Source: Elusimicrobiota bacterium
GTDB taxonomy: Bacteria > Elusimicrobiota > Elusimicrobia > UBA1565
DNA length: 64,000 nucleotides
Assembly: GCA_043827405.1 (NCBI GenBank)
Contig: JBDRPD010000025.1
Span: 24,238 to 88,237, forward strand
Direction: 5' to 3'
This document shows, one piece after another, positions 12,017 to 64,000 of this stretch; the stretch's first letter is position 1; each line of letters begins with the position of its first letter. A program made the position numbers and the translations under genes. Below the pieces are notes generated by a model that saw only the letters and a program-made list of their open reading frames with translations, made no database searches and had not been told where the DNA came from.

Positions 12017-12101
12017 ACCCGCATATACGAACGAGCCCCCGATTTGGTTCCCAAAAAGGAACGACACGCCTCAAAATAGTTTGAGACGTGTCGCGAAAGA
12101 G

Positions 12102-16922: not shown

Positions 16923-16928
16923 AGCTCC

Positions 16929-21048: not shown

Positions 21049-22109
21049 AGGCGGAACTCCAGGCCTTCCTTGAGAAAAGGATCTCCGACCGGCATATCCT
21101 CACCCCGGCGCATAGCCATTCGGCACCAGAGCAGACCCGCGGTCAGAAAGACCGCCGCGAACAAGAGCTCCGGCCAGGAGAAGAGGGGGCCTCCGCCGAG
21201 CGCCGGAAAGATCAGCCAGTACAAGTCCAGGAAGTGCGCCGCCAGAACGATGATGGAAACCTTGGCGAGATGCGGCAAGTCGCCTTTGGCGCCGCGCGGG
21301 ATGAGGGCGAAAAACGGGATCACGAAATGGAGCACCGCCATAGCCAAAGCGATGACGCCCCATGCTCCGCCGGTGCGGTCGATGTACCAGAACACCTCTT
21401 CCGGCAGGTTCGCGTACCACATCAGCATATACTGCGCGAAGCCGATGTAGGACCAGAATACGGTAAAGGCGAACATGAAGGCGCCCAGGTTGTAGATGTG
21501 ATCGAAGCGCACTCCGGGCAGGCGTCCCTGCTTCGTCAGGTAGGTTATACCCAGCGTGGTGGCCGCCAGTCCCGCCAGGAAGAAGCCGGCAAAGACGTAG
21601 ACGCCGAAAATATCGCTGTACCATTCGGGGTCCAGGCTGGAGAGCCAGTCGAATGAGACCAAGGTCACCGTGAGCGCGAACACGAACATGAAGGCGGGGG
21701 CCGCCCGCCGCAGCCGTACGGTGATCTCGGGGTCCTTGGTCTCGTCCTGCTCGAGCGAGCGGCCGACGAAGATATGCCGGCACAGCGCCCACAGCGCCAG
21801 GCAGACGACGGTGCGGGCGCAGAAAAACGGGATGTTGAGCCAGGCCGCTTTACCCGCGATCAGCGGATTGGCGGCGGCTTCCGGCCGCGCCCAGGGATAG
21901 AGCACCGGCAGCGAGAACAGCGCGATCAGTCCCAGCGGGACGGCGAGGTTCAGCAGACCCGAGAGCCGTTCGCAGACCCGCCGGATCGGCACGCTCCAGC
22001 GTGCGCCGACAAGATGCTCCAGCGCCACGATAAACAGGCAGCCGAGTCCGGTCCCGCTGAGAAAAAGGAACCACAGCAGCCAGTTGGCCCAGAACCGTTC
22101 GGCCGTCAT
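21045..22109 (-). CDS. actF: Alternative complex III subunit ActF
   Basis: Polytopic; DWLSSLDPEWYS, QYMLMWYANLPEE; true ATG at 22109. Confidence 0.88.
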   Translation of the reverse strand: MTAERFWANWLLWFLFLSGTGLGCLFIVALEHLVGARWSVPIRRVCERLSGLLNLAVPLGLIALFSLPVLYPWARPEAAANPLIAGKAAWLNIPFFCARTVVCLALWALCRHIFVGRSLEQDETKDPEITVRLRRAAPAFMFVFALTVTLVSFDWLSSLDPEWYSDIFGVYVFAGFFLAGLAATTLGITYLTKQGRLPGVRFDHIYNLGAFMFAFTVFWSYIGFAQYMLMWYANLPEEVFWYIDRTGGAWGVIALAMAVLHFVIPFFALIPRGAKGDLPHLAKVSIIVLAAHFLDLYWLIFPALGGGPLFSWPELLFAAVFLTAGLLWCRMAMRRGEDMPVGDPFLKEGLEFRL

Positions 22110-23191
22110 GGAATATCCTCCGGCTTGGCGCGGCGCGCCCGCTGCAGCGCCCGGATATAGTGCGTGACGGCCCAGCGCTCGTCCGCGCTCAGCTCCGCGG
22201 CATATGAGGGCATCGCGTCCTTGCCCGCGGTCATGGCGTGAAACAGCTGGCCGTCGGTGTAGTCCCGGAACTTCTGCGACTGCAGGTTGGCGGGTGTGGC
22301 GCCGTAGGCCGCGCTTAAAGTCGTGCGGCCTTCGCCCAGGGCTCCGTGGCAGACCAGGCACTGCTCGCGGTAGGCCCGGCGGCCGGTGCGGATCACTTCC
22401 TCCGCGGCCGGCAGGGGATTGGCGCCGCCGGCCGCGACGAGGCCGCCGCGCGGCACCGTGCCGGCCGGCCGCGGCCGCATGCTGCCCGGCGCTTGCGCAT
22501 CGAACCGGCGCTGGTCCTGCATGTGCGACATCGGCGGCAGCTTCGGAAAGAGCTTGACCGTCCAGTACGCCGCGAAGGCGGTCCCGCAGCAGGCGGCCGC
22601 GCAGAGGAAGGCGATGACCAGCGCCGTCTCCAGCCGGATCGGGGCCGGATCGTCGGGCAGCGGGACGATTTCGAGGCCGCGGGCGCCGGCCTGCTCGAGC
22701 GCTTGGCGCGCGGCGGTTTCGTCCAACGTTCCATCCTCCATTTCGAACGCCAGCGCGAAACGGTCGCGGGTGAGCGCGCGCATGGCCTTGGAGGCGAGCA
22801 GGGGATGCCACAGCGCCGGCAGCCGGTTGAGCAGAAACAGCATGCCGAGCCCGGCGGTCAAGGTGGCGAAAAGAACCATCGCCTCAAACATTACCGGCAC
22901 GAAGGCCTGCCACGAGAACAGCGCCTTGCCGCCCGTGGGGACGGCGTAGTCGACGGCGCTCGTCCAGCCCTGAAACAGCAGCGCGCCGACGGCGCCCAGC
23001 GCGCCCATGACCAGGACCATGCCGGCCAAAGGGGAGCGGCGCAGGCCGAGCGCGTCCTCAATACCGTGCACCGGATAGGGCGAGTAGGCTTCGAGGCGGC
23101 CGCCGGGCTTGCCCTTGAGCTTGCGCGCCGCGTCGATAAGACTCTGCGCGTCGTCGAACATTCCTACCACCGCGAAGACGCGCTTACTCAT
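22106..23191 (-). CDS. Alternative complex III ActD-ActE fusion (DUF3341 plus cytochrome c)
   Basis: YSPYPVHG, GGKALFSWQAFVPVMFE; then MQDQ, CLVCHG and MPSY. Confidence 0.85.
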   Translation of the reverse strand: MSKRVFAVVGMFDDAQSLIDAARKLKGKPGGRLEAYSPYPVHGIEDALGLRRSPLAGMVLVMGALGAVGALLFQGWTSAVDYAVPTGGKALFSWQAFVPVMFEAMVLFATLTAGLGMLFLLNRLPALWHPLLASKAMRALTRDRFALAFEMEDGTLDETAARQALEQAGARGLEIVPLPDDPAPIRLETALVIAFLCAAACCGTAFAAYWTVKLFPKLPPMSHMQDQRRFDAQAPGSMRPRPAGTVPRGGLVAAGGANPLPAAEEVIRTGRRAYREQCLVCHGALGEGRTTLSAAYGATPANLQSQKFRDYTDGQLFHAMTAGKDAMPSYAAELSADERWAVTHYIRALQRARRAKPEDIP

Positions 23192-24572
23192 GGCCGTCCT
23201 CGTGTCCGTGGGAGGGCTGGGCGCCGTGCAGGATCGCCTTCATTTCCGTGGTCGCGATGACGGGGAGGACCCGAGCGAACAGCAGAACCAAGGTGAAAAA
23301 CAGGCCGAACGAGCCCAGCAGGATGCCGAAGTCCGTCAGCGTCGGCGTAAAGACGTTCCAGGCCGCGGGCAAATAGTCCTGCTGCAGGGATATGACGATA
23401 ATGACAAAGCGCTCGAACCACATGCCGACGGTTACCGCCAGCGCCACGAAGATCATGCCGGGATAGCTGCGCCTAACCGTGCGCAGCCACAGGAGCTGGG
23501 GGATGCCGACGTTGCACATGAGCACGGTCCAGCCCGCCCAGCCGTAATTGCCGCCGATGTACTGCTTGAAGATATGATGCAGGTAGCCGCTCATGCTGTA
23601 CCAGGCGGTAAAGGCTTCCAGCAGGTAGGCATAGCCCATCAGGCAGGACATCGCCAGGATGACCTTGTTCATGACTTCCAGGTGGTATTCGGTGATGAGG
23701 TTTTTGAGCTCCATCGTCTCGCGCACCACGACGAGTACGATGACCACCATGGCGAAGCCGGCGAAGATCGCGCCGGTGACGAAGTAGGGCGGGAAGATCG
23801 TCATGTGCCAGCCCGGGACCAAAGAAACCGCGAAGTCGAAAGAGACGACGCTGTGCACCGAAAGCACCAGACCGGTCGCCAGACCGGCGAGCAGGAGATA
23901 GGCCTTCTCGTAGTGCTGCCAGTGCGAGGCGGCGCCCCGCCAGCCGAGGCTGAGGACGGTATAGGCCAGCTTCTTGATCTTGTTTTTGGCGCGGTCGCGC
24001 AGCGAGGCGATATCCGGGATCAGCCCCAGATACCAGAACATCAAAGACACGGTAAAGTAGGTGGAGACGGCCACCACGTCCCACAGCAGCGGCGAGCGGA
24101 AGTTGGGCCACAGCGCCCGCTGGTTCGGATAGGGAAAAAGCCAGAAGTTTATCCACGGGCGGCCGAGATGGATGAGGGGAAATATTCCCGCGCACATGAC
24201 GGCGAATATGGTCATGGCTTCGGCGAAGCGGGCGATGGCGTTGCGCCAGCGCCGGCGGAACAGGAACAGGATGGCGGAGATCAGAGTTCCGGCGTGGCCG
24301 ATGCCGACCCAGAACACGAAGTTGATGATCGGGAAGCCCCAGTAGACGGGCCGGTTGTTGCCCCAGACGCCGATGCCGTGGTACAGCGTATAGCCGATAA
24401 AGGCGAAGCCGATCGTCATGATCATGCTGGTGCAGGCGATGGCGATAAACCACTTAAGCGGCGGCTTTTTCTCGGCGTAGCTCAGGACCTGATCGTCGAG
24501 CGAGCCGGGGGTCACCCGGCCTTCGGTGAGGGCGGGCTCGCGCAGGGCGGCGGGAAGGGCGTCAGTGGCCAT
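23184..24572 (-). CDS. actC: Alternative complex III subunit ActC (NrfD family)
   Basis: NFVFWVGIGHAGTLISA, IHLGRPW, SPLLWD, SVHSVVSFDFA, GMWFERFVI. Confidence 0.95.
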   Translation of the reverse strand: MATDALPAALREPALTEGRVTPGSLDDQVLSYAEKKPPLKWFIAIACTSMIMTIGFAFIGYTLYHGIGVWGNNRPVYWGFPIINFVFWVGIGHAGTLISAILFLFRRRWRNAIARFAEAMTIFAVMCAGIFPLIHLGRPWINFWLFPYPNQRALWPNFRSPLLWDVVAVSTYFTVSLMFWYLGLIPDIASLRDRAKNKIKKLAYTVLSLGWRGAASHWQHYEKAYLLLAGLATGLVLSVHSVVSFDFAVSLVPGWHMTIFPPYFVTGAIFAGFAMVVIVLVVVRETMELKNLITEYHLEVMNKVILAMSCLMGYAYLLEAFTAWYSMSGYLHHIFKQYIGGNYGWAGWTVLMCNVGIPQLLWLRTVRRSYPGMIFVALAVTVGMWFERFVIIVISLQQDYLPAAWNVFTPTLTDFGILLGSFGLFFTLVLLFARVLPVIATTEMKAILHGAQPSHGHEDGHE

Positions 24573-27297
24573 GCCCCTCCTTAGTCCTGGTCCCTGCTTT
24601 GGGATTCTCGATCTTCGCGAGATAGGTTACCGACGGTCTGGCGCCGAGCTCCTCCAGCACCTTGTAGCCGCGCTTATCGTGCGCCAGCTTGGCGACGGCG
24701 CTGTTCTTGTCGTTGGCGTCGCCGAAGACGATGGCCTTGGCCGGACAGGCGGCGGCGCAGGCGGGCTGAACCTCGCCGTCGCGGATATCACGACCCCTGG
24801 CCCGCTGCTTCACATCCTGGATGCGCTGCACGCAGAAGGTGCACTTCTCCATAACGCCGCGCGGGCGCAGCGTTACTTCGGGATTGTAGACCATGGACTC
24901 CGGCTCTTTCTTGGCCGAGGTAAAATCGAAAAAGTTGAAGCGCCGGACCTTATAGGGACAGTTGTTGGCGCAGTAGCGCGTCCCCACGCAGCGGTTATAG
25001 ACCATCTGGTTGAGGCCGTCGGGGCTGTGGTTGGTGGCGTTGACCGGACAGACGGTCTCGCAGGGGGCGTCGTCGCAGTGCTGGCACAGCATGGGCTGGT
25101 GCGCGACTTTGGGAGCGTTGTCGCTGCCCTCATAATAGCGGTCGATGCGCATCCAGTGCATCTCGCGGCCCTTGCGCACCTCTTCGGGGCCGACGTTCGG
25201 GATATTGTTTTCGGCCTGACAGGCGACGACGCAGGCGCCGCAGCCGACGCAGGCGGAAAGGTCGATCGCCATGGCCCATTTGCTACCGGCATATTCGGCG
25301 GGCTCGTTGAGAGTGTGCAGTTCGTGTTTCGCATGGTGCCCGCCGCCGTGCCGGTGCTCGTCCAAAGTCATGCGGCGGACGATATCCCGGCCATGGGCGC
25401 CGTGCTCGCGCTGGGTTAAAGCGAGCTCTTGGCGCGCGCCCGTGCGCGTGATCTTGACGCCGCCGCCTTGGCCGAGCAGCGGAAACAGGTTGGCGCCCAC
25501 CGCGGCGCCTATCGTGCCCGTGCGCCGCCCATAGCCGAGCTCCGCGGCGACCAGGCCCGGCACCTGCCCCTTCTGCACCAGCGCCGGCAGCGTGGCTTGC
25601 GCTCCGCCGCTGTCGAGCTGTACGAGGTCGCCGTCTTTGACGCCGAGGCGTTTTGCGTCCGTCGGCGACAAGGCGGCGACGTTGCCCCAGGTCTTTTTAC
25701 TGACCGGATCGGGAAGCTCCTGCAGCCAGCCGGAGTTGGCGTAGCGGCCGTCGTAAACGGCGGTTCCGGGCTTGAGCAGGAGCTCGAAGCCGCCGCTGGA
25801 GCGGGGGACGGACGGGACCGGCCTGGACGCCGGGCGGCGGCGGCCGTGACGCTGCGCGACAAAGCCTTCATGCAGGCTTGCCTGCCAGAAGCGGTCAAAC
25901 GGGACCGGGCTGCTCTTGGAATAAACAACGCGCTTCCACCGCTTCTCCAGATAGGTGCGAAAGTCCTCCTTGGCGCCGAGCAGGTCGAGCAGAACGTCTT
26001 CGCCCTGGCGTGTGTCGTAAAGAGGCTCTACCACCGGCTGCTGCAGGCTGAGAGCTCCGTCGGTTTCATAATCGCCCCATGCTTCCAGCCAATGGCTCTC
26101 AGGCAGTACGACCTCGCATTCGTGCGCGGTCTCATCTTCATGCAGTCCGAGCGCGGCCTTGAAAGCCGTCGCTTTCATCGCTTTCCGCATGAGCGCCGAA
26201 TCCGGAAAGGCGTAGAGCGGGTTGGTGCGCCAGAAAATCGCGGCGCCGTACTCTCCGCCCGCCATGCCGTGTATCTCCCGTTCCGCTTCGGCCAGCGTTG
26301 CGAACCCCATCCCTTTCGGAAAGGCCGGGTACTCTACCGTATAGCCGACGGCGCCGAGCAAGTCGTTGAGCCGGCGGCATGCGGCATGCGCTTCAGCCGG
26401 CAGTTCGGGCCCAGCGATTACGATCGCGCGCTTGCCCGCCCGCCCGAGGTCCTGCGCGATCTGCGTCAGCCCGTGCGGCTGCGCCTTTCCCTTGCCGCGC
26501 ATGAGTCCGGCCAGCTGTTCGATAGCCGCCGCCGCCTGCGACGGCCGCAGAGGGATGCGGTGATCGGCATTGGAGCCGGTCACGCTGAGACCGCCTTCTA
26601 GAACGTAAAGGCGGTTCATCCCGCCTTTGGCCTCGGGACGACGCCGTGCGGAGAAGTCGGTGATCGCGTCGGGCCAGCGGGCATTGAGGAAATCCGCGTC
26701 GAATGAGACGATGATGTCGGCGCGGTCGAGCCGCAGGCGCGGCAGCATCGACTGCGCTCCGCCGGGTGAGGCCGGCTCCCAGGCTACATGCCGCAGCCCG
26801 CGGTACTTGCGCCGCAGCCGCTCGATCAGCTCCGCGCGCGCCGGCGACAGCACCGCGTCGGTCAGCAACAGGATCTTCCTGCCGGATTTAGCGGCGTTTT
26901 CGAGAGCTTCTTTCACGTGTTTGAGCGACTGGTCCCAAGCCGCTTCCTTGTGATCAACCATCGGACCCCGCAGCCGGTCGGGATCATAGAGGCGGAGCAC
27001 GTCGGCCACCGCGCGCAGCGCCGTACGGCCGCGCATGCGCGGATGCTTGTCGTTGCCCTGGACATGGATCGGCCGGCCCTCGCGCGCCTTTACCAGGACG
27101 CTGTAGGCGAGTTCGCCTTCCTGGAAAGTGCTGGCGAACCACTCCGCGACGCCGGGCACGGAGCTCCCGGCGGACGGCTTGGGGCGGGCGACGATGCGGC
27201 CCCGGTCGGTGCGCGAGCAGCCGCTGGCGAAGGCGGCGTAGGCGCCCATGAGGCCGAGAAAGCGCGTGCGCGAAATCTTTTGGTCCTTATCTTCCAT
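24562..27297 (-). CDS. actB: Alternative complex III subunit ActB
   Basis: Tat-like/lipoprotein leader, Mo-oxidoreductase-like body (LYDPDRL, GWLQELPDP), four Fe-S motifs including CVGTRYCANNCP. Confidence 0.93.
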   Translation of the reverse strand: MEDKDQKISRTRFLGLMGAYAAFASGCSRTDRGRIVARPKPSAGSSVPGVAEWFASTFQEGELAYSVLVKAREGRPIHVQGNDKHPRMRGRTALRAVADVLRLYDPDRLRGPMVDHKEAAWDQSLKHVKEALENAAKSGRKILLLTDAVLSPARAELIERLRRKYRGLRHVAWEPASPGGAQSMLPRLRLDRADIIVSFDADFLNARWPDAITDFSARRRPEAKGGMNRLYVLEGGLSVTGSNADHRIPLRPSQAAAAIEQLAGLMRGKGKAQPHGLTQIAQDLGRAGKRAIVIAGPELPAEAHAACRRLNDLLGAVGYTVEYPAFPKGMGFATLAEAEREIHGMAGGEYGAAIFWRTNPLYAFPDSALMRKAMKATAFKAALGLHEDETAHECEVVLPESHWLEAWGDYETDGALSLQQPVVEPLYDTRQGEDVLLDLLGAKEDFRTYLEKRWKRVVYSKSSPVPFDRFWQASLHEGFVAQRHGRRRPASRPVPSVPRSSGGFELLLKPGTAVYDGRYANSGWLQELPDPVSKKTWGNVAALSPTDAKRLGVKDGDLVQLDSGGAQATLPALVQKGQVPGLVAAELGYGRRTGTIGAAVGANLFPLLGQGGGVKITRTGARQELALTQREHGAHGRDIVRRMTLDEHRHGGGHHAKHELHTLNEPAEYAGSKWAMAIDLSACVGCGACVVACQAENNIPNVGPEEVRKGREMHWMRIDRYYEGSDNAPKVAHQPMLCQHCDDAPCETVCPVNATNHSPDGLNQMVYNRCVGTRYCANNCPYKVRRFNFFDFTSAKKEPESMVYNPEVTLRPRGVMEKCTFCVQRIQDVKQRARGRDIRDGEVQPACAAACPAKAIVFGDANDKNSAVAKLAHDKRGYKVLEELGARPSVTYLAKIENPKAGTRTKEGHGH

Positions 27298-27457
27298 GCC
27301 GGCTCACAGAGTGCCGCGGGCGGCGAATCTTAGGCGCGCGGCGGCGGGGTGAAATCAAGCGCGAAACCGCCTTGGCCGGAGTGAGCCAAAAGGCACCCGA
27401 AAACAGCGCGAGAATGCCGAGGGCTCCGCGGCGGGTTACTTTACCGGTGGCAGGCAT
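27287..27457 (-). CDS. Possible small membrane protein between actA and actB
   Basis: MPATGKVTRRGALGILALFSGAFW...; fills the gap and overlaps both neighbours. Confidence 0.35.
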   Translation of the reverse strand: MPATGKVTRRGALGILALFSGAFWLTPAKAVSRLISPRRRAPKIRRPRHSVSRHGR

Positions 27458-28073
27458 AGCAGTGCTCCGCTCCTTGGCTGATTGGGCTGTCCGGCGGCAG
27501 GGCGTTGTGCGGGTCGCGGTGGCAGGCCAGGCAGCTCGCCATGCGCAGCGACATGCGCTGGGCGACGACGTCCATGGTCTCCACCGCGCCGTGGCAGGTC
27601 TGACAGGCGATGCCGCCGTTGACGTGCGGACGGTGATCGAAGAAAACGTGGTCCGGAAGGGAGTGCACCCGCTTCCAGAAGATCGGGGTATTGTCCGCAA
27701 AGCGCCTGGTCAGCGTCTTGATGTCGGGCGAGTCGGTCTTGGTGACGCGGTGGCACTTCATGCAGGTCTCGGTCGGAGGGATGCCCGCATGGCGCGAATT
27801 GCGTGCCTGGGAGTGGCAGTACAGGCAGGATATCTCCATGTCTCCGGCGTGCACCTTATGGGAAAACGGAATCGGCTGCTCGGGGGCGAAGCCCACGGTG
27901 AAGCGGTCGGGCTGAGTTAACCAGCCCACGGCCGCCGCGACCAGCCCCGTGGTCAGCACCGCGGCGATGATCAGCGCCTGGACAGCGCGGTTGCGCAGCG
28001 CTTCCCAGGCGGACTCGGCGATGCTTTCGGCTTTTTTGATGTAAGCGTCTAAATCGATGAAATCCACTGCCAA
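27441..28073 (-). CDS. actA: Alternative complex III subunit ActA (pentaheme cytochrome c)
   Basis: PEQPIPFSHKVH and five CxxCH motifs; start uncertain. Confidence 0.92.
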   Translation of the reverse strand: MAVDFIDLDAYIKKAESIAESAWEALRNRAVQALIIAAVLTTGLVAAAVGWLTQPDRFTVGFAPEQPIPFSHKVHAGDMEISCLYCHSQARNSRHAGIPPTETCMKCHRVTKTDSPDIKTLTRRFADNTPIFWKRVHSLPDHVFFDHRPHVNGGIACQTCHGAVETMDVVAQRMSLRMASCLACHRDPHNALPPDSPISQGAEHCYACHR

Positions 28074-48659: not shown

Positions 48660-50648
48660 TCAGGCGGCGGCATCCGCCGGCTCTGCGATCTCCAAACTAA
48701 AGAAGAAAGCCGCTCCCTTTTTTTCTTCGCTTTCAACCCATAATCCGCCTTTATGCGCGGTGATCAGGTGCTTGACGATCGACAGGCCGAGCCCCACGCC
48801 GTCGCGATGCTGATGCTTGGTCTCAACCTGCTGGAACCGCTCGAAAATTCTCTTCTGGTTTTCCTCCGAGATGCCGATACCCGTATCCCTGACCGTGATC
48901 ACCGCCATCCCTTCATGCTCTCCCGTCCCCGGGGCGGCGCTCACATGAATCTGTCCGTCGGCCGGGGTGCTTTTAATCGCATTGGAAATCAGGTTGGTGA
49001 CGATCTGCACCACGCGGCCATGATCCGCGACGACATAGCGCGCGGCGCCGAGGTTCTCGACGTCCAGGCCGAGCCAGAGCTTCTTCGACGCCGCCCAGGG
49101 CTGCAGGCCTTCCATCGCCTCCTGCAAGATGGGCTCGAGCTCGGTAACGACCAGCTCCGTCTTGAGCTGGCCCGCCTTGAGCTTGGAGAAATCGAGGATC
49201 TCGTCGATCATGGACTTGAGACGCGCGCCGTTGCGCCGGCTGATGTCGAGAAACTTGCGCTCCTGCTTCTGCAGCCGGCCGCCGGCCATATCGGCGAGTA
49301 TCTCCAGGGCGGAACATATCGAGCTCAGGGGCGCCTTGAGCTCATGCGTGACATGGGAAAGAAACTCCTCTTCCCTGCGCTCGGCTTCCTTGTATTTGGT
49401 CTGATGGGGCATCACGCCGACGGTGCCGACCACGCGGCCTTGTTCGTCCTGGATCACCGCCATGGAATTTTTCAGCGCGCGCATATCGCTCTTGCGCCCG
49501 GCGAGCCGGATATTTTTGGAGATGTGCCGGTCGGTCGGTATGCGCATCTCCTCCGCCAGCGCCGCGATCTGTGTTTCATCGTCTACGCAATCGAGAACCG
49601 GCCGGCCCGCGACGTCGACCAGGCGCCTGCCGATAATCTCCTCGGCGATGGGATCCAGCATCAGGATTCGACCCTCGGCGTCGACGGTCACCCGGCCGCC
49701 CGCGAAGCCGCTCATCACATTCTCGGCGCGCGCGCGCTCATTTAGCACCACGTGATGCTCGAGCCTTATATGCTTCGTGGACTGCTCAACACGGCGCTCG
49801 ATTGCCCCCTTGACCATGCGCACGGCCTCGGAATAGAACGCGGCCCGCTCCTGGGGATCGCTGATCGAGCGCTCGACCAAATTTTTAATCAAGCCGCCGA
49901 ACCCCTGACCGGAGCCCGACCCGGCGGCCGCACCGCCGCCGCCCGAAGCAGAACCGCCCGCCGAACCTGCCGGACCATAGGCCGGGGGATAGTACCCCGC
50001 CCCGGGATCATAACCGGCCGCCGGCTCGGCGGGAGCGCGGTACTGCGGCGGCGGGGCGGCAGGCTGCCGCCGGGGAATCGGGCTTTCGATCTCCGCCGGT
50101 TCGGCCGGCTGCGGCCGCGGCCGCGGGGCGCTCTTCGCATATTCATCAATGATCTGCGTGTTCATATGACTCACGCCCTTCTGCTTCAAATAATCCTGCA
50201 CCGCGATCTCTTTGACTTCATTGGAGGGTATGGCGCCGAGCTCGCACAGCGCGGCCAACTCATAGAGCAGTATGCCTTTGAGGAAGGTAACGCTATGCAG
50301 ATCCTGAAGACGAAACAGTTCAACTAGAATTTCCGGGATATGGGCGGATTCGCTCAACACCGCCTCATTGACATACCAGCGCCCCTCGCGCATGGCATAC
50401 GTAACTTCTTCCCACTGCATATCCTCAAACACCGCCTTAAGATAGCCGTGACATTCCTGCAGCGCCGAGGTGGGGACCGGATGATCCGGCTTGTACAAAG
50501 TCATCAGCTTGATAGTTTGGCCCAAAGTCTTGAGAAAATCCCGGCACGTGATGAGCGTCTTCTTGGTCAATGGGCGCTCTCCTCCCCAATCGCTCAAGGA
50601 TGATTCCGCGCGCGCAGGAACGGCGTCAGGCTCAGAACGGCTCATCAT
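48660..50648 (-). CDS. Soluble PAS sensor histidine kinase with unknown N-terminal domain
   Basis: THELKAPL, NLISNAIK, DTGIGI, GLGL; Pro/Gly-rich linker. Confidence 0.9.
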   Translation of the reverse strand: MMSRSEPDAVPARAESSLSDWGGERPLTKKTLITCRDFLKTLGQTIKLMTLYKPDHPVPTSALQECHGYLKAVFEDMQWEEVTYAMREGRWYVNEAVLSESAHIPEILVELFRLQDLHSVTFLKGILLYELAALCELGAIPSNEVKEIAVQDYLKQKGVSHMNTQIIDEYAKSAPRPRPQPAEPAEIESPIPRRQPAAPPPQYRAPAEPAAGYDPGAGYYPPAYGPAGSAGGSASGGGGAAAGSGSGQGFGGLIKNLVERSISDPQERAAFYSEAVRMVKGAIERRVEQSTKHIRLEHHVVLNERARAENVMSGFAGGRVTVDAEGRILMLDPIAEEIIGRRLVDVAGRPVLDCVDDETQIAALAEEMRIPTDRHISKNIRLAGRKSDMRALKNSMAVIQDEQGRVVGTVGVMPHQTKYKEAERREEEFLSHVTHELKAPLSSICSALEILADMAGGRLQKQERKFLDISRRNGARLKSMIDEILDFSKLKAGQLKTELVVTELEPILQEAMEGLQPWAASKKLWLGLDVENLGAARYVVADHGRVVQIVTNLISNAIKSTPADGQIHVSAAPGTGEHEGMAVITVRDTGIGISEENQKRIFERFQQVETKHQHRDGVGLGLSIVKHLITAHKGGLWVESEEKKGAAFFFSLEIAEPADAAA

Positions 50649-51450
50649 TGCCCCCCACTAGACGTTTATGCCCTTCCAGAACCAGCGGGTCCTTGGGATG
50701 TTCCTGCACCGCCAAATGGGAAATCTTAAGCGCCTCGTCCCGCCGGCCCTGCCGGTCGAGCACCATGGCCAGGTTGTAAAGGACGAGAGAGTTCCGCGGA
50801 ACCAGCTTGAGCGCATGCCGCAAGTAGCGTTCAGCTTCTTTAAGCCGTCCCCCTTCGCATAAGACGACGCCGAGATCGATATAGATGCCGGGGCAGGACG
50901 GGTCGAGCTCGAGAGCGCGCTTAACCGCGGCGTCGGCCGGAGAATAGCCGAAGGCCCGCCAGTATTCGTACCAGTTATCAGCGCTCTCGGGCTCGAGGTC
51001 CAGCGCGCACAAGATCGCCTCCTTGCGCATTTTGGGATCGGCCGCGGCGCCCCGCCGGTGCGCCACCGCGACCGCGCGGTGGGAGTCGGCCCGTTCCGGC
51101 GCCAGTTGCTTTGCTTTCGCGGCGTGCTCGACGGCGAGCTTGTAGTAGCTCTCGGCGCTGCCGCCGTTAAGCTCCAGACGGAAACCCCACAGAGAGAACG
51201 CCTCCGCCAAGGCGGCATGGGCCGGCGCGTAGGCCGGCGACTGGTCGAGCGCGTGGCGGAGAAAGGCCACCGCCTTCTCATAGCCTTCGATGTCGTAGAG
51301 CCGCATCATTTTGCGCGCCGCGCACAGGACATCCTCCAGCTTATGCTGCTGGCGGGGCTTTTTGTCCGGCTTCGCGGCCGCGGGATTCACCGGCTTTTTT
51401 CCTCCCGCCGAACCGGCCGGCTGCGCCTTGATTAGGATTACTGGTGCCAT
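50632..51450 (-). CDS. TPR repeat protein
   Basis: Repeated ALxLxP helical-turn motifs. Confidence 0.85.
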   Translation of the reverse strand: MAPVILIKAQPAGSAGGKKPVNPAAAKPDKKPRQQHKLEDVLCAARKMMRLYDIEGYEKAVAFLRHALDQSPAYAPAHAALAEAFSLWGFRLELNGGSAESYYKLAVEHAAKAKQLAPERADSHRAVAVAHRRGAAADPKMRKEAILCALDLEPESADNWYEYWRAFGYSPADAAVKRALELDPSCPGIYIDLGVVLCEGGRLKEAERYLRHALKLVPRNSLVLYNLAMVLDRQGRRDEALKISHLAVQEHPKDPLVLEGHKRLVGGNDEPF

Positions 51451-51454
51451 CGCA

Positions 51455-53563
51455 TTACCCCGAAAGGATGATCTTCAACGCCTCGCCCAGCGAGGTCCGG
51501 CCGTCCGCGACGGCGCCCAGGGCGGCCTCGCGCAAAGTCTGCATGCCCTCGGTCTTGGCCCGCTCAGTGAGCGCATCGACGCTGGCTCCTGAAAGGATGA
51601 GGCTGCGCATCTCGGACGTAGTGATCGGCATGACTTCGAAGATGGGCATGCGCGACGTATAGCCGGTCTGGTTGCACTCCCGGCAGCCGACGCCGCGATA
51701 AAGCTCCGCCAATTCAGCCGCCTCATCCTCCGAAAGGAGCTTCCGCTCGTCCTCCGAAAGCGGCACCTGCAGCTTGCAGGTATCGCACAATACCTTGATC
51801 AGCCGCTGCGCGACGATGAGCTTGACGCTCGCGGCCACCAGGAACGGCGCCATACCCATATGCGTCAGGCGGGCGACTGTCGCCGGCGCGCTGTTGGTGT
51901 GCAAAGTCGAGAGCACCAGATGGCCGGTAATCGAGGCCTTGACCGCGATCTCGGCCGTCTCGATGTCGCGGATTTCGCCGACCAGCATAATATCGGGGTC
52001 CTGACGCAGGAAAGCGCGCAGCACCTTTTCGAAGGTCAGCCCGATGTCGGGCCGGACGGGCACCTGGGTAATCCCGGAGAGCCGGTACTCGACGGGGTCT
52101 TCCGCCGTCATGACATTGACGTCGGGATTGTTTATGGTGCTGATCATGGTATAGAGCGTGGTGGTCTTGCCGCTCCCGGTGGGACCGGTCACAAGGATGA
52201 GCCCGTTGCTGCCCCTAAGCGCCTTGGAGGCGTTCTCGACATCCGCTTCCCGCAGGCCGATATGATCCAGATCGCCCTGCAGCTTGCTGCCGCCGAGCAC
52301 GCGCATTACGATCTTCTCGCCGTTCATGCCGGGCAGGGTGCTCACGCGAAACTCGACCTTCTTCCGGTTGATGGTGGCGCGAAACTGCCCATCCTGGGGC
52401 AGACGCCGTTCCGTGATAACCAGGTCCGACATAATCTTCACCCGGGCGGCAAGCCGTGCCGACAACGAGCTGGGAAACGAGCACAAATGCTTAAGCGAAC
52501 CATTAAGGCGCAGCCGGACGGCGATCTCATGCTCCTGCGGCTCGATATGGATGTCGCTGGCGCCCATCTCGACCGCGCGTACGAGGATCTTGTTCACCCG
52601 GTTGATCAGCGGCGAATCGTTGGCGACGGCCTCGAGGCCGGCCTCGTCATCCACCTTGTCATCATCCTTCTCAATATCGATGAGGAGCTCCTCGGTGCTG
52701 TTGAGGTTCTCACCCTCGAGCTGCTGCAGGTTGGGCATCCCCTCCGGCATCTCGACATCAAACTCTCCGCCGGGCTCTTCCGGGCCGTCCGGCGCCGCGG
52801 TCTCCGCCTCCGCCGTCAGCTCCAATCCCGGCGCCGTCGGCTCCGCCGCGGGCTCAGCGGCGGGCGGCTTAAAGGACCCCTCTATTGCCGCGCCCAGCTC
52901 GATCACCGCCTCGGCCGGAGCCGCCGTTTTCGCCGCGGCCGCCGGCGGCGCCGGCTTATTGCGCGGCGCCGACGGCTTTAACAGCTTGGCGACCGAGGCC
53001 AGCAGCTGGGAGTTGGATACCGGCTTATCGAGAAAGTCCTGAACGTCCAGGTTCATATCCCGCAGCTGCCGCCGGTTGCGCGCCCCGGTGAACATGATCA
53101 TCGGCGTCTTGCGCATTTCCTCATGTCCGCGGAGCTCCTGAATGAGCTCGTAGCCGTTAAGGCCGGGCATGTTGAAGTCGAGCAGGATCAGGTCGGGATG
53201 GTCCCGCAGCGCCTTCTGCAGCCCTTCATTCCCATCCTCGGCCGTATCAACCTCATATCCCTTTTCTTTAAGAAGATAGTGAACGACATCCCGATAATCC
53301 TTACTGTCGTCGACGACAAGAACGCGGCTTGTCGCCGGCACCGCAGCGCGCACCGCGACCGCCGCGCGGCCCGCGGGCCGGGACGGCACCGCGGGGCTGC
53401 TTGCCGTCCGCGGCGGAGGCTCTTTGCGCGGCGGCGGGGATACCGGCGGCGCAGCCGTCTCGATGATCGCCGGCACGGCCGGGGCTGCGGGCTCCGGGTC
53501 GTCGGTAGACAGCAGCCTGTCCAGCTCGTCGAGCAGGTCGTCGTTGATGCCGTTGTCGCTCAT
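51455..53563 (-). CDS. PilB/GspE-family ATPase with N-terminal receiver domain
   Basis: REC (VVDDS, LDFNMP, KP), acidic linker, ASDIHIEP, GPTGSGKT, RQDPD, TGHLVLSTLH, Cys4 motif. Confidence 0.92.
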   Translation of the reverse strand: MSDNGINDDLLDELDRLLSTDDPEPAAPAVPAIIETAAPPVSPPPRKEPPPRTASSPAVPSRPAGRAAVAVRAAVPATSRVLVVDDSKDYRDVVHYLLKEKGYEVDTAEDGNEGLQKALRDHPDLILLDFNMPGLNGYELIQELRGHEEMRKTPMIMFTGARNRRQLRDMNLDVQDFLDKPVSNSQLLASVAKLLKPSAPRNKPAPPAAAAKTAAPAEAVIELGAAIEGSFKPPAAEPAAEPTAPGLELTAEAETAAPDGPEEPGGEFDVEMPEGMPNLQQLEGENLNSTEELLIDIEKDDDKVDDEAGLEAVANDSPLINRVNKILVRAVEMGASDIHIEPQEHEIAVRLRLNGSLKHLCSFPSSLSARLAARVKIMSDLVITERRLPQDGQFRATINRKKVEFRVSTLPGMNGEKIVMRVLGGSKLQGDLDHIGLREADVENASKALRGSNGLILVTGPTGSGKTTTLYTMISTINNPDVNVMTAEDPVEYRLSGITQVPVRPDIGLTFEKVLRAFLRQDPDIMLVGEIRDIETAEIAVKASITGHLVLSTLHTNSAPATVARLTHMGMAPFLVAASVKLIVAQRLIKVLCDTCKLQVPLSEDERKLLSEDEAAELAELYRGVGCRECNQTGYTSRMPIFEVMPITTSEMRSLILSGASVDALTERAKTEGMQTLREAALGAVADGRTSLGEALKIILSG

Positions 53564-54702
53564 TGTATTACCGCCTCCGCCAGGGGACGATTGATCCCGA
53601 AGCGGCCGGCATCTTCTTCAGTATCGCCGCTCGGAGGCATTCGCACCGCGGCCTCCTTGGGATCAACGACGCCGCTGCGCGCCAGCTCGGCGAGCGATTT
53701 TTCCAGCGAGAACATTCCCGCGCGCCCGCCGGTCTCGATCATGTTTTTGATCATATGCGACTTGCCGTCGCGTATCTGATGGGCCACCCCGGCCGTCACC
53801 GACAGAAACTCGCGCGCGGCCACCATGCCGTTCCCATCGGCGCGCGGCAGCAGCACCTGCGATACGACTCCTTTCAAAGAGTTGGAAAGCTGGACGCGGA
53901 TCTGCTGCTGCTGCTCCGCCGGAAAGACATCGACGATGCGGTCGATGGACTGCGCCGAGTCCGCGGTATGCAGCGTCGCGAAACAGAGGTGGCCGGTTTC
54001 CGCCGCGGTCAGCGCCAGGGAGATGGTTTCGACATCGCGCATTTCGCCGATCAGCAGCACGTCGGGATCCTGGCGCAGGGCCTGGCGCAGGGCATGCCCG
54101 AACGACCGGGTATCCACGCCGACCTCTCTTTGCCGAATCACGCTCATCTTGCGCTCGTAGACGAACTCGATAGGGTCCTCGATGGTGATAATGTGCTTGC
54201 GGTGATTCTGATTGATCTTTTCGATCAAGCAGGCCATGGTGGTCGACTTCCCGCTCCCGGTCGGCCCGGTCACGAGGATCAGCCCATGCGGATAGTCCGC
54301 GAGACTCATCACATTGGGCCCGAGGCCCAGGAACTCCGGGGTCGGGATCGTCTCCGGGATGACGCGAAAAACCGCCTCCGCCGCGCCGCGCTGACGCAGG
54401 ACATTGATGCGAAAGCGCGCCGCGTCCTTGATCCGAATCGAGCAGTCCAAATCCATCTGCGCCTCGAACTCGGCCCGCTGCTTCTCGTACAAGCAGGAGT
54501 AGATCATCTTGCGGCAGGATTCGGCGTCCAAAGGAAGAAACTGGGACATCTCGATTAATTCGCCGTTGACGCGCACCATCGGCGGACGGCCTACCGTCAG
54601 ATGGATATCGCTGGCGCCCAAGCCCAAACCGGCGGTTAATATGGAAACCAGGTTCGGCTTCTGCTGCGCCGGGACCGCCTCCGTGATGTCAGAATCCGCC
54701 AT
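53560..54702 (-). CDS. pilT: PilT/PilU-family retraction ATPase
   Basis: ASDIHL, GPTGSGKST, EDPIE, GEMRD, ETGHLCFATLH. Confidence 0.9.
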   Translation of the reverse strand: MADSDITEAVPAQQKPNLVSILTAGLGLGASDIHLTVGRPPMVRVNGELIEMSQFLPLDAESCRKMIYSCLYEKQRAEFEAQMDLDCSIRIKDAARFRINVLRQRGAAEAVFRVIPETIPTPEFLGLGPNVMSLADYPHGLILVTGPTGSGKSTTMACLIEKINQNHRKHIITIEDPIEFVYERKMSVIRQREVGVDTRSFGHALRQALRQDPDVLLIGEMRDVETISLALTAAETGHLCFATLHTADSAQSIDRIVDVFPAEQQQQIRVQLSNSLKGVVSQVLLPRADGNGMVAAREFLSVTAGVAHQIRDGKSHMIKNMIETGGRAGMFSLEKSLAELARSGVVDPKEAAVRMPPSGDTEEDAGRFGINRPLAEAVIQ

Positions 54703-59128: not shown

Positions 59129-59965
59129 TTATTCCAGCTGGAAGATGAACTTCTGGGGCACGCGCACGGCCACCGGACGGCCGCGCCGCATGGCGGGAGA
59201 GAACAGCATGGTGCGGGCGGCCTTCTGCGCCGCCTCATCGAAGGCCCGGCCGTCCGAGCGCAGCACCTCGACCGGCGCGGTGCGCCCGTCCTCGCCGATC
59301 TCGAGCTTGAGGAGGACATGGCCCTCGCGGCCGGCGCGGCGCTCGGACTCGGGGTAGAAGCGGCGCAGGTTCTTGAGCAGCTCCTCTTTGTTGAGCAGGC
59401 GGGGCAGGAGATCGAGCGGCTGGCCGGTTCCGGTGCCGTCGCCGGTCCCTTCGCCGTAGCCGCGCCCGCCGCCGGAAAGCGGGGCGCTGCCGGTTCCGTG
59501 CAGCGCTCCGTCCGGGCCGCCCGGGGCGTCGGCGCCCGGCGTCTCCACCGCGCCCTCCGGCACGGCGAGCGGCGGCGGCGCAAAATCCGCCGCGGCGTTC
59601 ACTTTCTCCGCCACCGGCTCGGCGGCGGTCGGCGCGGCGATCGGCTCGGGCCTGGCTTCCGGCAGCGCCGTCACCGGGACGACCGCGGGCGCCGGCTTGG
59701 GCGGCGCCTTGGGCGGCATCTGCGTCAGCGGCGCCTCCTTGGGCGCCAGCGGCTTGGGCGGCGCCTCATACACCGGCCCCGCCCTGCGCCCGCCGGTGCC
59801 CAAAGGGATACTGAGATCGATCTCCATCACCGGGCGGCTCGAGGCGAAGGGATTGCGCAGCCCGATGCCGGCCAGCAGCATCAGTCCGGCATGCAGCGCG
59901 AAGGAAGCTCCCAGGCAGCGCTTAAATAAAATCGGATCGGCGGGAGACGCGGCGAAAAAGCTCAC
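59129..59965 (-). CDS. tonB: TonB energy transducer
   Basis: SFALH TM motif, Pro-rich linker, YP..ERRAGREG C-terminal domain. Confidence 0.88.
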   Translation of the reverse strand: MSFFAASPADPILFKRCLGASFALHAGLMLLAGIGLRNPFASSRPVMEIDLSIPLGTGGRRAGPVYEAPPKPLAPKEAPLTQMPPKAPPKPAPAVVPVTALPEARPEPIAAPTAAEPVAEKVNAAADFAPPPLAVPEGAVETPGADAPGGPDGALHGTGSAPLSGGGRGYGEGTGDGTGTGQPLDLLPRLLNKEELLKNLRRFYPESERRAGREGHVLLKLEIGEDGRTAPVEVLRSDGRAFDEAAQKAARTMLFSPAMRRGRPVAVRVPQKFIFQLE

Positions 59966-60363
59966 CGCGACCGGACCTCCAGGCTGGCCTTGCGGATGCC
60001 TGCCCCGCGCACCACATCCAAAATGCCGACCATCTCCCCGTAGGAAACCGTCTGGTCACCCGCGACCATGACCCGGAGGTTCGGGTTTGTCCGCCGCATG
60101 CCGGAAAGCGTGGCGGCCAGCTCGGCGCGATCGACTTTCCGCCCCGCGAGGTAGAGCTTCCCCCGGCCGTTGTAGACCACCTCCAGCGCCTCGATTTCGG
60201 CGGTCTCCTGATGGGCGGCGGCGGGAACGTCCACCTTGATCGCCCGGCGGTTGATCAAGGGCGCCGTGGCCATGAAGATGATGAGCACGACCAGGATAAT
60301 ATCGACCAACGGGGTGACGTTAATGTCGGTGATCGCATCGGGGGATTCACCGCCGCTCTTCAT
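59962..60363 (-). CDS. exbD: ExbD/TolR
   Basis: INVTPLVDIILVVLIIFM. Confidence 0.92.
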   Translation of the reverse strand: MKSGGESPDAITDINVTPLVDIILVVLIIFMATAPLINRRAIKVDVPAAAHQETAEIEALEVVYNGRGKLYLAGRKVDRAELAATLSGMRRTNPNLRVMVAGDQTVSYGEMVGILDVVRGAGIRKASLEVRSR

Positions 60364-60374
60364 TCAGCCTCCGT

Positions 60375-60995
60375 CTACGCGGACCGCAGATGCGAGAGGA
60401 TCAGCCGGGACAAGGTTTCCGTCGCCGTCAGCAAATCCTGGACCTGCTTCTTGAAGTAGTTATAACTGATGACGCAGGGGATGGCAACGAACAGCCCCAC
60501 CGCGGTAGCGATCAAGGCTTCGGAAAGCCCCGCCATCACCACCTCCGGACCGGCCGAGCTGTGCCGCGCCAGGTCATGAAAAGCGCGGATCACCCCCAAC
60601 ACCGTACCGAACAGGCCGACAAACGGCGCGTTGTTGCCCAGGGTCCCGAGGACCAGCAGGCGCTTCTCCAAAAAACGACGTTCCTCCAGGCTCGCCGCGA
60701 CGAAGCGGTGCTCGGCGGAAGCCGGTCCCCGGCCGATCGACAGCAGCCCCGAACGGAGAATGCGGCTCACCGCGCCGGGCGAAGACTGCAGCAGCTTGTC
60801 GGCCGCTTCCAGCTTGTCCGCGTCGATCAGCTCGAGCAGCTTGCCGCGCAGGCCCGCCAGCAGTAAATCTTCCCGGCGCAGGACCAGCGCGCGCTCGATA
60901 ATGATCGCAAGCGCGAAGACCGAAGCCAGAAGCAGCCCCCAGATGACCCAGTCGCCCCCGGTCAGCGCGAACGCTTTGATAATCCCAAGTCCCAT
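60375..60995 (-). CDS. exbB: ExbB/TolQ/MotA proton channel
   Basis: APFVGLFGTVLGVI, EALIATAVGL. Confidence 0.92.
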   Translation of the reverse strand: MGLGIIKAFALTGGDWVIWGLLLASVFALAIIIERALVLRREDLLLAGLRGKLLELIDADKLEAADKLLQSSPGAVSRILRSGLLSIGRGPASAEHRFVAASLEERRFLEKRLLVLGTLGNNAPFVGLFGTVLGVIRAFHDLARHSSAGPEVVMAGLSEALIATAVGLFVAIPCVISYNYFKKQVQDLLTATETLSRLILSHLRSA

Positions 60996-61001
60996 GGCCG
61001 C

Positions 61002-61820
61002 CTACTCGCTGTCCTTGAATTTTTTCAGGCGCAGCAGCGCCCCGGCCAGCTCCGCGCGCACGATCGGGTCCGGCTCACCGATCAGCCGGCTCTGCAGCAG
61101 CCGGTACTCGAAGCCTTCGCCGAGCTCGCCGATATAGCGCGTGGCCAGCGCGCGGATAAACCAGTCGTTGTGACTCGCATAGTCGCGCAGGATCTGCCGG
61201 CTCAGCTCGAAGCCGAGCTCCTTGCGCCGCCAGTCCGCGGCCGAGGCGATGACGCGCAGGATGAAGCTCTGGTCGTCGTGCGCGGCCTGGCGCACCCGGT
61301 CGCGGGCGGGCACGCTGTCGAGCAGCAGCAGGGCCTCGAGCGCGCCCAAGCGGACGGTAAAATTCTCATCGACGATCGCGTCCTGGGCCGGGCCGAGGAA
61401 CATCTCGTTTTTGGTATAGCCCAGCGCGACGAGCGCGGCCGCCCGCAGCTGCGGATTCTCGCCGGTCCGGGTCACATCACGCAGGGCGTTCTGCAGGGGA
61501 ACATCCTTAACGCCGGCGAGACCTTCAAGCAGCAGGAAGCTCAGCTCCGTATAGCGCGTCTTGAGCTTGTGGCCGCGCTGGGTCACCAGCTTGCTGAGAT
61601 TGGCGAGCGAGGAGTCGTTCGGGTCCGGCCGCAGACCCTTGGACTGCAGCAGCCGTAAAAGCGTCGCGTTGACCCGGGGATCGATCCGGTACTGATCCGG
61701 TATTTTTTCGCGCGGCGCGGTGATGACGATCGGGTCGAGCTCGAAATACAACGACGGCACGCCTTGCGCGGCGGCGGAAACCGCGAGGGACCCCGCGACG
61801 AGGAGGAGCGCGGCGCGCAT
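61002..61820 (-). CDS. Exported HEAT-repeat protein with N-terminal TonB-box-like motif
   Basis: Signal peptide (AAAQ), LDPIVITA, HEAT-like repeats (LRAAALVALG, VRLGALEAL, IRALATRYIG). Confidence 0.78.
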   Translation of the reverse strand: MRAALLLVAGSLAVSAAAQGVPSLYFELDPIVITAPREKIPDQYRIDPRVNATLLRLLQSKGLRPDPNDSSLANLSKLVTQRGHKLKTRYTELSFLLLEGLAGVKDVPLQNALRDVTRTGENPQLRAAALVALGYTKNEMFLGPAQDAIVDENFTVRLGALEALLLLDSVPARDRVRQAAHDDQSFILRVIASAADWRRKELGFELSRQILRDYASHNDWFIRALATRYIGELGEGFEYRLLQSRLIGEPDPIVRAELAGALLRLKKFKDSE

Positions 61821-62686
61821 CACGGCTCCTCCGACTTGGGGAAAAGTTTGAGCGCGGCGATCGCGTACTCGGCGAGAATAAAAGGATCCTTCTCCGTGTC
61901 CAGCAGGCGGACGAAGGTATGATAATCCTTCCCCTCGCCGAAATCCCCGAGGTAGCGCGCGGCGTTGGCCCGGACCAGCCAGTTCTGGCTGCCGAGGAAA
62001 TCGCGCAGCTTGTCGAGACCCGACGTATCGCCCAGCCGCGCCAGCGCCTGGGCGCAAAAGACCCGCAGCACCGGCTCGATGTCATTTTGCCAGGCCACCG
62101 TTAACAGCGGCAGCGCCTTCTGCCTGAGCTCGGCGGCGTGCTTCCCGCCGTCGGCCCAGACCATCAAGGCCTCCAGCGTGCCGAAGCGAATCGCGGGATG
62201 ATTATGCGCCACCGCTTCATGAAACACCGCATAGTCCTCAGGGTTGTGGAACCTGGCCAGGCCGATCAGGGCGGTGGTGCGCACCTCGGGCTCCCGGGCC
62301 CAGCGCGCCATCTCCACCAGCCTCTTGCGCAGCGCCTCATCGGGATCGCGGGCCAGCGCCTCGGCGACGGCAACGCCGGGATTCAAATAGCGGTTGCGCA
62401 GCTGATAGCCGATCGGAGAGCCCACTTTTAGAATCTCACAGAACGCCGCCGGGGTCGCGCTCTCGTCGCATAGCCCGATATCCGGCTTGATTTTGTCGAC
62501 GCGTTCCAGAACGTCGACCAAGGCGTTGAGTATTTGGGGATCGGTCTCAGATAAAGATTTCGGCGGGGGCGGCGCGCCGGGGAGAAAAATCGGCGCGTTC
62601 GGATCGACCGGCAATTCCACGCAGCCCAGGCATAGCCCGAGAGCGGCCGCGCCCGCCAGCAAATAGTACTGTGTCTTTCTAGCCAT
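61820..62686 (-). CDS. HEAT-repeat lipoprotein
   Basis: Lipobox-like CLGC; repeats VRTTALIGL, IRFGTLEAL, VRANAARYLG. Confidence 0.78.
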   Translation of the reverse strand: MARKTQYYLLAGAAALGLCLGCVELPVDPNAPIFLPGAPPPPKSLSETDPQILNALVDVLERVDKIKPDIGLCDESATPAAFCEILKVGSPIGYQLRNRYLNPGVAVAEALARDPDEALRKRLVEMARWAREPEVRTTALIGLARFHNPEDYAVFHEAVAHNHPAIRFGTLEALMVWADGGKHAAELRQKALPLLTVAWQNDIEPVLRVFCAQALARLGDTSGLDKLRDFLGSQNWLVRANAARYLGDFGEGKDYHTFVRLLDTEKDPFILAEYAIAALKLFPKSEEP

Positions 62687-63623: not shown

Positions 63624-63697
63624 GCGGGCGTAGTTCAATGGTAGAACACGAGCCTTCCAAGCTCGATACGTGGGTTCGATTCCCATCGCCCGCTCCA
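63624..63697 (+). tRNA. tRNA-Gly(TCC)
   Basis: Full cloverleaf, loop CTTCCAA context, encoded CCA. Confidence 0.96.
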
Positions 63698-63717
63698 TTG
63701 AGCAGGACCGTGTTTTC

Positions 63718-63790
63718 GCTGAGGTAGCTCAGCTGGTAGAGCATCTCCATGGTAAGGAGAAGGTCGTGGGTTCGATCCCCATCCTCAGCT
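63718..63790 (+). tRNA. tRNA-Thr(GGT)
   Basis: Full cloverleaf, anticodon loop ATGGTAA; canonical Gly-Thr-tuf order. Confidence 0.95.
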
Positions 63791-63872
63791 AAGATTTCGT
63801 GCAATGCCGTAATTTGGTAGGATCAAACTGAATTATTTGAACCAGCACCGAAGGTTCACATAGGAGACAGCT

Positions 63873-64000
63873 ATGGCGAAGGAAAAATTTAACCGCACCA
63901 AACCGCACGTAAACATCGGGACGATTGGTCACGTAGACCACGGCAAGACGACGCTGACGGCGGCGATCACCTCGGTGATGGCGAAGAAGGGCTTGGCGAA
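63873..64000 (+). CDS. tuf: Elongation factor Tu (5' part)
   Basis: [41 protein letters not shown]. Confidence 0.98.

Follow-up and report, generated by a model that had tools for sequence, protein, structure and literature searches.

ExbB and ExbD turn proton flow into force on TonB, and TonB grips short sequences, known as boxes, by β-strand augmentation. In the case of TonB-box bacteriocins, a TonB-type protein engages a non-barrel, imported foreign protein; as far as we know, the cell's own proteins on which Ton/Tol force acts are transporter plugs and TolB. We have analysed a 64,000-nucleotide stretch of DNA (the window) from contig JBDRPD010000025.1 (C25) of an Elusimicrobiota bacterium (GCA_043827405.1; G000, the host), which carries an operon encoding two HEAT-repeat proteins, HEAT-A and HEAT-B, followed by exbB, exbD and tonB. 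This five-gene cassette is real and conserved, and apparently undescribed: literature searches of open-licence papers and preprints gave no published description of it. It appears to be a Ton/Tol variant with a new class of client.

The classical Ton system is built around TonB-dependent transporters (TBDTs). Its closest representatives here, the Elusimicrobiota TBDT-exbB-exbD-tonB operons described below, share with the cassette a homologous motor and TonB C-terminal domain, the gene order, with the client gene in first position, and a proline-containing box pattern. The HEAT client differs in being all-helical and periplasmic, without plug or barrel, mostly lipid-anchored, and either split or fused; it would work like a TBDT plug or TolB, yet belongs to neither family. 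According to the accessible part of PMC8928145, TolQRA pulls the TolB N-terminus to release Pal, and TolA binds that N-terminus by β-strand augmentation. The cassette motor would resemble that of Tol-Pal in acting on a periplasmic client that is not a channel and has a lipoprotein as its partner; where the HEAT proteins are split, the soluble one would present the short strand at its mature N-terminus. Unlike Tol-Pal, the cassette has a TonB-type transducer, a client with a TonB box and no β-propeller or OmpA domain; the HEAT partners are paralogues, often joined in one chain, and the host encodes Tol-Pal separately.

Force transducers headed by vWA domains and TPR-tolQ-tolR-tolR operons are described in the available portion of PMC12204202. 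As far as that portion goes, these systems resemble the cassette in their 5:2 motor operon, uncharacterised helical-repeat gene and lack of a transporter, but they have a new transducer head (vWA) and a TPR repeat, whereas here a normal TonB is combined with a new client; no mention of HEAT repeats was found in the available portions of that paper and its supplement. FusB of Pectobacterium, as presented in the accessible sections of PMC7593965, is also a TonB-type protein that engages a non-barrel protein, but its partner is imported and foreign, whereas here the box is on a co-encoded envelope protein of the cell itself. PBS-lyase and alphaRep-type HEAT proteins (YibA, 1oyz; CpcE/F, 5n3u; alphaRep, 4xl5) have the same repeat fold, but their likeness to HEAT-A and HEAT-B is generic and at the repeat level only. 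The Agl-Glt gliding motor of Myxococcus has two ExbD-like subunits and linked glt barrel and TPR genes, whereas the cassette has one exbD and no conserved barrel neighbour.

The operon and its linkage in Elusimicrobiota

The operon and the features within it are as follows.

62686-61820, minus strand: HEAT-A, 288 aa; predicted lipoprotein with a Pro-rich tether, a helical N-terminal subdomain and PBS-lyase-type HEAT repeats.
62621..62623, minus strand: codon of the HEAT-A lipobox cysteine (Cys22), nearly invariant among homologues.
61820-61002, minus strand: HEAT-B, 272 aa; Sec-type signal peptide (judged from sequence), TonB-box-like motif, helical N-terminal subdomain and HEAT repeats.
61739-61710, minus strand: TonB-box-like motif of HEAT-B, residues 28-37 (LDPIVITAPR), a conserved island in a variable linker.
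60995-60375, minus strand: exbB, subunit of the motor pentamer; GLFGT and ATAVG helices intact.
60363-59962, minus strand: exbD; NVTPLVD intact, with the proton-binding Asp.
59965-59129, minus strand: tonB; N-terminal anchor with S-x3-H, Pro-rich linker of about 155 residues, TonB_C with an invariant YP.

The ATG of HEAT-B overlaps the TGA of HEAT-A by 1 bp, gaps of 6 bp and 11 bp separate HEAT-B from exbB and exbB from exbD, and exbD and tonB overlap by 4 bp. The initial annotation had described five tightly coupled genes, and its coordinates, overlaps and gaps were exactly right. Pfam matches above cut-off were HEAT_2 in both HEAT proteins, and MotA_ExbB, ExbD and TonB_C in the other three. 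HEAT-A and HEAT-B are 29% identical over 243 aa (E 7e-18) and are thus paralogues. Artefactual or shadow open reading frames (ORFs) were ruled out, as the proteins are conserved at 40-70% identity across dozens of genomes. The same annotation had found no β-barrel receptor, TolB or Pal in the window, and this held in genome-wide searches and in Pfam scans of window ORFs, which detected none of these families among 41 further ORFs chosen by codon bias and the others scanned. The operon is flanked by unrelated genes, a divergent sirtuin gene upstream and a hybrid histidine kinase gene downstream. A promoter and terminator scan returned two weak internal promoter-like sites and no coding-strand terminator, and was uninformative.

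To examine gene order we used the best 80 of 88 confirmed relatives from a GTDB scan, a set that leans to close relatives because the eight weakest were left out. In 80/80 loci exbB comes directly after HEAT-B, on the same strand; the linkage of HEAT homologues to exbBD-tonB is near-universal. All five genes are present in 71 loci, and the other nine end at a contig edge. Because the arrangement recurs in 80/80 related loci, it is not due to chance. What flanks the cassette depends on the lineage (among others, genes for haem and lipid A synthesis and for SecA), and neither a conserved sixth gene nor a conserved barrel gene within 8 kb was found in the 80 loci. A linked TBDT that could account for the motor was also looked for and rejected: none was seen among the neighbour clusters or long aromatic-ended ORFs of these loci (38 representatives scanned), and no TBDT is a conserved neighbour.

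Besides the queries, the two HEAT proteins had 59 and 42 strong homologues, beyond which similarity fell steeply to generic HEAT proteins. All strong matches that bear a taxon name are labelled Elusimicrobiota or simply 'bacterium'. When 301 genomes of the phylum were sampled, 52 matched at E 1e-10, comprising 42 with the true pair (best E < 1e-60) and 10 with a generic HEAT stretch. Linkage of the pair to the motor holds in 39 of the 42 carriers, as established by locus map in 30 and by coordinates or direct reading in nine. It was found in 0/88 genomes of family f4 and 0/89 of family f14 in this sample; one locus titled Candidatus Endomicrobium (L028) groups inside an f3-like clade though f14 gave none, and is probably from a mislabelled bin.

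The motor genes are well conserved. Across the loci, exbB has GL[FL]GT in 78/80 and the second Thr motif in 75/80, and exbD has NxTPxxD in 74/78. The tonB product matches PF03544 (E 2.5e-17) and TIGR01352 above cut-off, had no TolA or TonB_2 match by Pfam, and the YP of its C-terminal domain (Y21, P22) is invariant in 72 aligned rows. By these sequence criteria the cassette motor is a member of the Ton family, of transporter type, with a transducer of true TonB type. At 100 bits or above, the profile of the TonB domain matched 39 HEAT carriers and two genomes without the HEAT pair.

Ten of the closest paralogous tonB loci were read. Two were orphan tonB genes, and eight were TBDT-exbB-exbD-tonB operons (in G249, G181, G263, G148, G294, G188, G297 and G150). 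The HEAT genes thus occupy the slot held by the TBDT in the paralogous operons. Boxes could be read in seven of the eight operon-heading TBDTs, and include VAPITITAKP, LVPITISAAP and MTPITITASA. The simplest history would be that, within a single type of operon, one client gene in the leading position was exchanged for the other, in either direction. One operon-heading TBDT (L194:6684-9043; G249:C4) is in two overlapping ORFs of 610 and 177 aa, by frameshift or assembly error.

The TonB-box-like motif and its predicted binding by TonB

The sequence LDPIVITAPR sits directly behind the HEAT-B signal peptide and had been missed in the initial annotation. The pattern is present in 79 of 81 aligned sequences, including 27/27 fusions, where it lies within the linker. 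Across the alignment of 81, the residues at positions 31 and 33 are aliphatic without exception; A35 and R37 occur in 80 sequences, P36 in 77, and P30 and T34 in 71, with freely varying flanks. HEAT-A has a Pro-rich tether in the corresponding region and no such motif. Boxes before the plug of Elusimicrobiota TBDTs include LDPLVITASR, LEPMVITATR and LETIVVTASR; this type accounts for 12 of 52, the others having different boxes. A candidate Pseudomonas box, DQVVTATR, is given in the accessible part of PMC6118199. In sequence pattern, HEAT-B has a TonB box at or near its mature N-terminus.

A matrix was trained on the 52 TBDT segments alone. In 53 of 80 HEAT-B regions, its top-scoring window out of about 276 was the motif; 55 best windows fell in the zone, and two were dropped as not being the motif. 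This result is supportive of a TonB box, to a modest degree. A strict box pattern run over 5594 host ORFs gave four matches, of which only HEAT-B has the match right behind a signal peptide, although this pattern missed the box of the host's own TBDT and is not a sensitive screen. The boxes of Elusimicrobiota TBDTs (L130-L141, L145-L184) fall into LDPLVITASR-like, EEEAKVVSAS-like and VFLSLTR-like classes, which may reflect different cognate TonB paralogues. No classical-type box was seen in the four TBDTs read from the cassette-less genome G142.

The TonB C-terminal domain and HEAT-B residues 19-272, both supplied as alignments, were submitted to complex prediction, as had been suggested when the operon was first noted. 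The pair scored 0.48 (0.46-0.49 in three runs) against 0.00 for the best control, with contacts agreeing by at least 87% between runs and a partner pLDDT of at least 82. This is above a pass mark reached by 116 of 157 solved complexes and two of 215 mismatches, and the tool grades a pass at this level as weak support.

The HEAT pair, and other motors and transporters in the same genomes

The N-terminal subdomain of HEAT-A contains a conserved G-x-x-L-R-x-R-Y, and both HEAT domains have many invariant R/W/Y/E residues. A lipobox pattern is present in 66 of 79 HEAT-A homologues, in none of which the +2 residue is Asp. The remainder comprise four with a lipobox evident by eye, four truncated sequences and four or five deep-branching fusions without a lipobox. 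Given the lipobox Cys, the lack of Asp at +2 and a LolA gene in the host genome, HEAT-A is predicted to be an outer-membrane lipoprotein, provided that the +2 rule, which derives from E. coli, holds in Elusimicrobiota as well.

Of the 79 loci with both genes, 27 have HEAT-A and HEAT-B as a single ORF. A quick maximum-likelihood tree built from 94 B domains gives 11 changes of fusion state by parsimony, at least eight of them forced by well-supported branches; when the tree is midpoint-rooted, its deepest branches are mostly fused. HEAT-A and HEAT-B thus act as one unit. AlphaFold2 gave a confident, all-helical model of a fused form (pLDDT 86, pTM 0.83). When HEAT-B was modelled alone its N-terminal subdomain was poorly defined, with block means of pLDDT 45-76 over residues 41-100, compared with approximately 84-94 for the equivalent stretch of the fused model. 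We infer from these models that the N-terminal subdomains of HEAT-A and HEAT-B may pack together.

Neither protein has a plug or a barrel, as Pfam matches are to HEAT families only and the models are all-helical. There was no Pfam match to TolB_N, PD40 or OmpA, and no peptidoglycan-binding domain was detected in the pair. Fold searches returned generic HEAT and alphaRep matches only (Z 10.9-13.5, rmsd 4.3-6.3 and identity 13-23% for YibA, CpcE/F and alphaRep), among which no solved structure with the N-terminal subdomain and box stood out, and the ESM Atlas gave only generic HEAT matches, with all feature scores below 0.9. Fusion to a domain that might reveal function was looked for among the strong full-length matches and not found: of 85 longer matches, 82 are A-B fusions of 536-588 aa and three are generic HEAT proteins. 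A distant single-domain relative of 319 aa (P0199) has the N-terminal subdomain and no visible box.

INDEPENDENCE from transporters was assessed in the 41 carriers besides the host. Nine have no TBDT barrel match, and seven of these, which are 90-98% complete, have no plug match either. A plug-domain match in a 234-aa open frame (L186; G282:C37:48029-48289) comes from a genome without a barrel match. TBDT barrels occur in 159 of the 301 phylum genomes, far more than the cassette. G142, which belongs to the same genus as the carrier G090, has no HEAT-B and no cassette-type TonB genome-wide; all five genes are absent from its syntenic slot, and it nonetheless has five TBDTs. The host genome is 98% complete, and its sole TBDT barrel and plug are on contig C34 with no TonB beside them.

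The cassette was also considered as a replacement for Tol-Pal, and this was ruled out because the host has tolQRA and pal-cpoB-tolB elsewhere. They are split over two loci, with a tolQ-tolR-tolA-like set on C45 (L126:877-2655), the transducer of which matches both TolA and TonB_2, and pal-cpoB-tolB on C3 (L128:6839-9708). The TolB_N match is on C3, and none of 14 OmpA/Pal matches is on C25. A second motor operon of the host (L125:5217-12911; G000:C105) encodes a 1316-aa TPR protein, ExbB, two ExbD proteins, a 367-aa TonB-like protein and a 377-aa secreted protein without a Pfam match, in an Agl-Glt-like layout. G142 has a similar set (L189) and, in addition, another motor with two exbD genes (L190).

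Elsewhere in the window, positions 15130-28073 hold a cluster for aerobic respiration, in which Alternative complex III genes (ActA/B/C/D-like) precede those for cytochrome c oxidase subunits and for a UbiA-family prenyltransferase. A single minus-strand run at 48660-54702 encodes two ATPases, one PilT-like and the other PilB/GspE-like with a fused receiver domain, together with a TPR protein and a histidine kinase. A tRNA-Ser gene (12101-12186), possibly an integration site, has an ORF6N gene on one side and a nucleotidyltransferase gene pair on the other, and tRNA-Gly, tRNA-Thr and the start of tuf are at 63624-64000.

The proposed client and alternative explanations

The proposal in the initial annotation that the HEAT pair is the client of the motor is favoured by synteny, the TonB-box-like motif, the transporter slot, the TBDT-less carriers and the weak pass in complex prediction, while binding and function are inferred. 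On balance we prefer the view that this is a Ton motor with a dedicated non-channel client, barrel-less and mostly lipid-anchored, in the form of an A:B clamp opened by pulling. The lipid anchor of HEAT-A would hold the pair. HEAT-A would associate with HEAT-B through the homologous N-terminal helical subdomains to give a pseudo-symmetric two-lobed clamp, as the fusions and models suggest. There is a good chance that TonB binds the HEAT-B box: from the identity of the motif and the complex prediction, its C-terminal domain would take up LDPIVITAPR by β-strand augmentation. The box is approximately ten residues before the first HEAT-B helix, itself part of the pairing subdomain, and because of this proximity pulling would peel off that helix and open or reset the clamp. 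Like the unfolding of a transporter plug under pull, clamp opening would release or reposition a bound envelope ligand. That such opening is the work done by the motor is a more tentative suggestion. The cassette TonB may additionally energise orphan transporters.

An earlier version of this idea, in which a soluble partner is pulled off its anchor in the manner of TolB and Pal, is a poorer fit. In 27/79 loci HEAT-A and HEAT-B make up one chain, and since fused forms are common a conformational switch is likelier than HEAT-B being carried away. The analogy is weakened further by the absence of a detectable peptidoglycan-binding domain and by the separate tolQRA and pal-cpoB-tolB of the host.

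Several results weigh against a dedicated client. The matrix missed the motif in 27 of 80 HEAT-B regions, and the median motif score was 6.8 bits, compared with 12.5 for held-out TBDT boxes and 4.8 for the best HEAT-A windows. Complex predictions passing at 0.60 or below comprise 18 of the 157 solved complexes and both passing mismatches; no interface was returned, and as TonB-box binding is textbook knowledge the model may recall solved complexes. The pLDDT contrast is suggestive at most, because different sequences and alignments underlie the fused and HEAT-B-alone models. Of the 41 carriers, 34 have a match to a TBDT barrel or plug, and the host's lone orphan TBDT may use the cassette TonB. 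Three of the 42 carriers, all of family f10 (G146, G240, G281; L191, L192:4297-7932, L193:4332-8308), have no linked motor. In all three genomes the fused HEAT protein heads a run of a TPM-domain gene, an unassigned ORF and a LemA gene, and no cassette-type TonB was found in them, though other motors are present. The HEAT protein can therefore persist without the cassette motor. The f10 motif is E[LM]EPL[VI]I[VT]PP, so that its first half is still conserved and probably has a structural role as well. Finally, these are draft genomes related to one another and not independent samples, and the counts are indicative.

The f10 proteins also bear on a reading in which the cassette is a housekeeping Ton motor serving unlinked TBDTs, the HEAT gene is a hitch-hiker and the motif is no more than an intramolecular latch, docking into the groove of the HEAT domain. 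Retention of LEPLxI without a motor would suit a latch, as would the partial order of the motif region in both AlphaFold models (pLDDT 58-79), and a housekeeping role would suit the host, with its single TBDT and no TonB of that TBDT's own, and two genomes (G276, G176) that have classical-box TBDTs and just three TonB_C genes each. However, the cassette is intact in seven of 41 genomes without a TBDT match, and G142 lacks all five genes together yet has five TBDTs. The motif matches TBDT boxes residue for residue, and its T-A becomes x-P exactly and only in the motor-less lineage, a single event that fits loss of TonB recognition. We regard this explanation as unlikely. A decoy or throttle, in which a tethered box parks idle TonB and limits futile cycling or competes with transporters while no cargo is moved, would account for the box, for the lipid anchor and for co-transcription with no need of another partner, in keeping with the lack of a conserved sixth gene. 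Two full HEAT domains with so many invariant residues far exceed the needs of a decoy, however, and the cassette is retained where there is no TBDT to regulate, which makes this very improbable.

The HEAT pair might also be an adaptor in trans that binds a boxless outer-membrane barrel or secretion pore and relays the force of TonB to it. HEAT solenoids are protein-binding scaffolds as a family, and HEAT-A is a predicted outer-membrane lipoprotein. Motor force on a non-nutrient outer-membrane module has a precedent in GltA/B of Myxococcus, according to the available part of PMC9946355. As the 80 loci have no conserved barrel gene within 8 kb and no strong full-length match is fused to another domain, we give this only a small chance.

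Returning to the preferred reading of a dedicated non-channel client, the cassette would at its fullest, and somewhat speculatively, represent a third endogenous class of Ton/Tol client, a barrel-less, lipid-anchored α-solenoid clamp with its own TonB box; proton-driven pulling would open the clamp, and an envelope component would thereby be loaded, released or moved. The clamp would have taken the place of the transporter in a Ton operon, and would be an undescribed trans-envelope machine of Elusimicrobiota. If so, the mechanical work of TonB extends to envelope proteins of the cell itself that are not channels, and for orphan tonB genes elsewhere there may be soluble clients with a box that have been overlooked in annotation. 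The cassette would also provide a small soluble system (approximately 250 + 95 residues) for TonB pulling without a barrel, with natural split, fused and motor-less variants as built-in controls, and would bear on how TonB transmits force.

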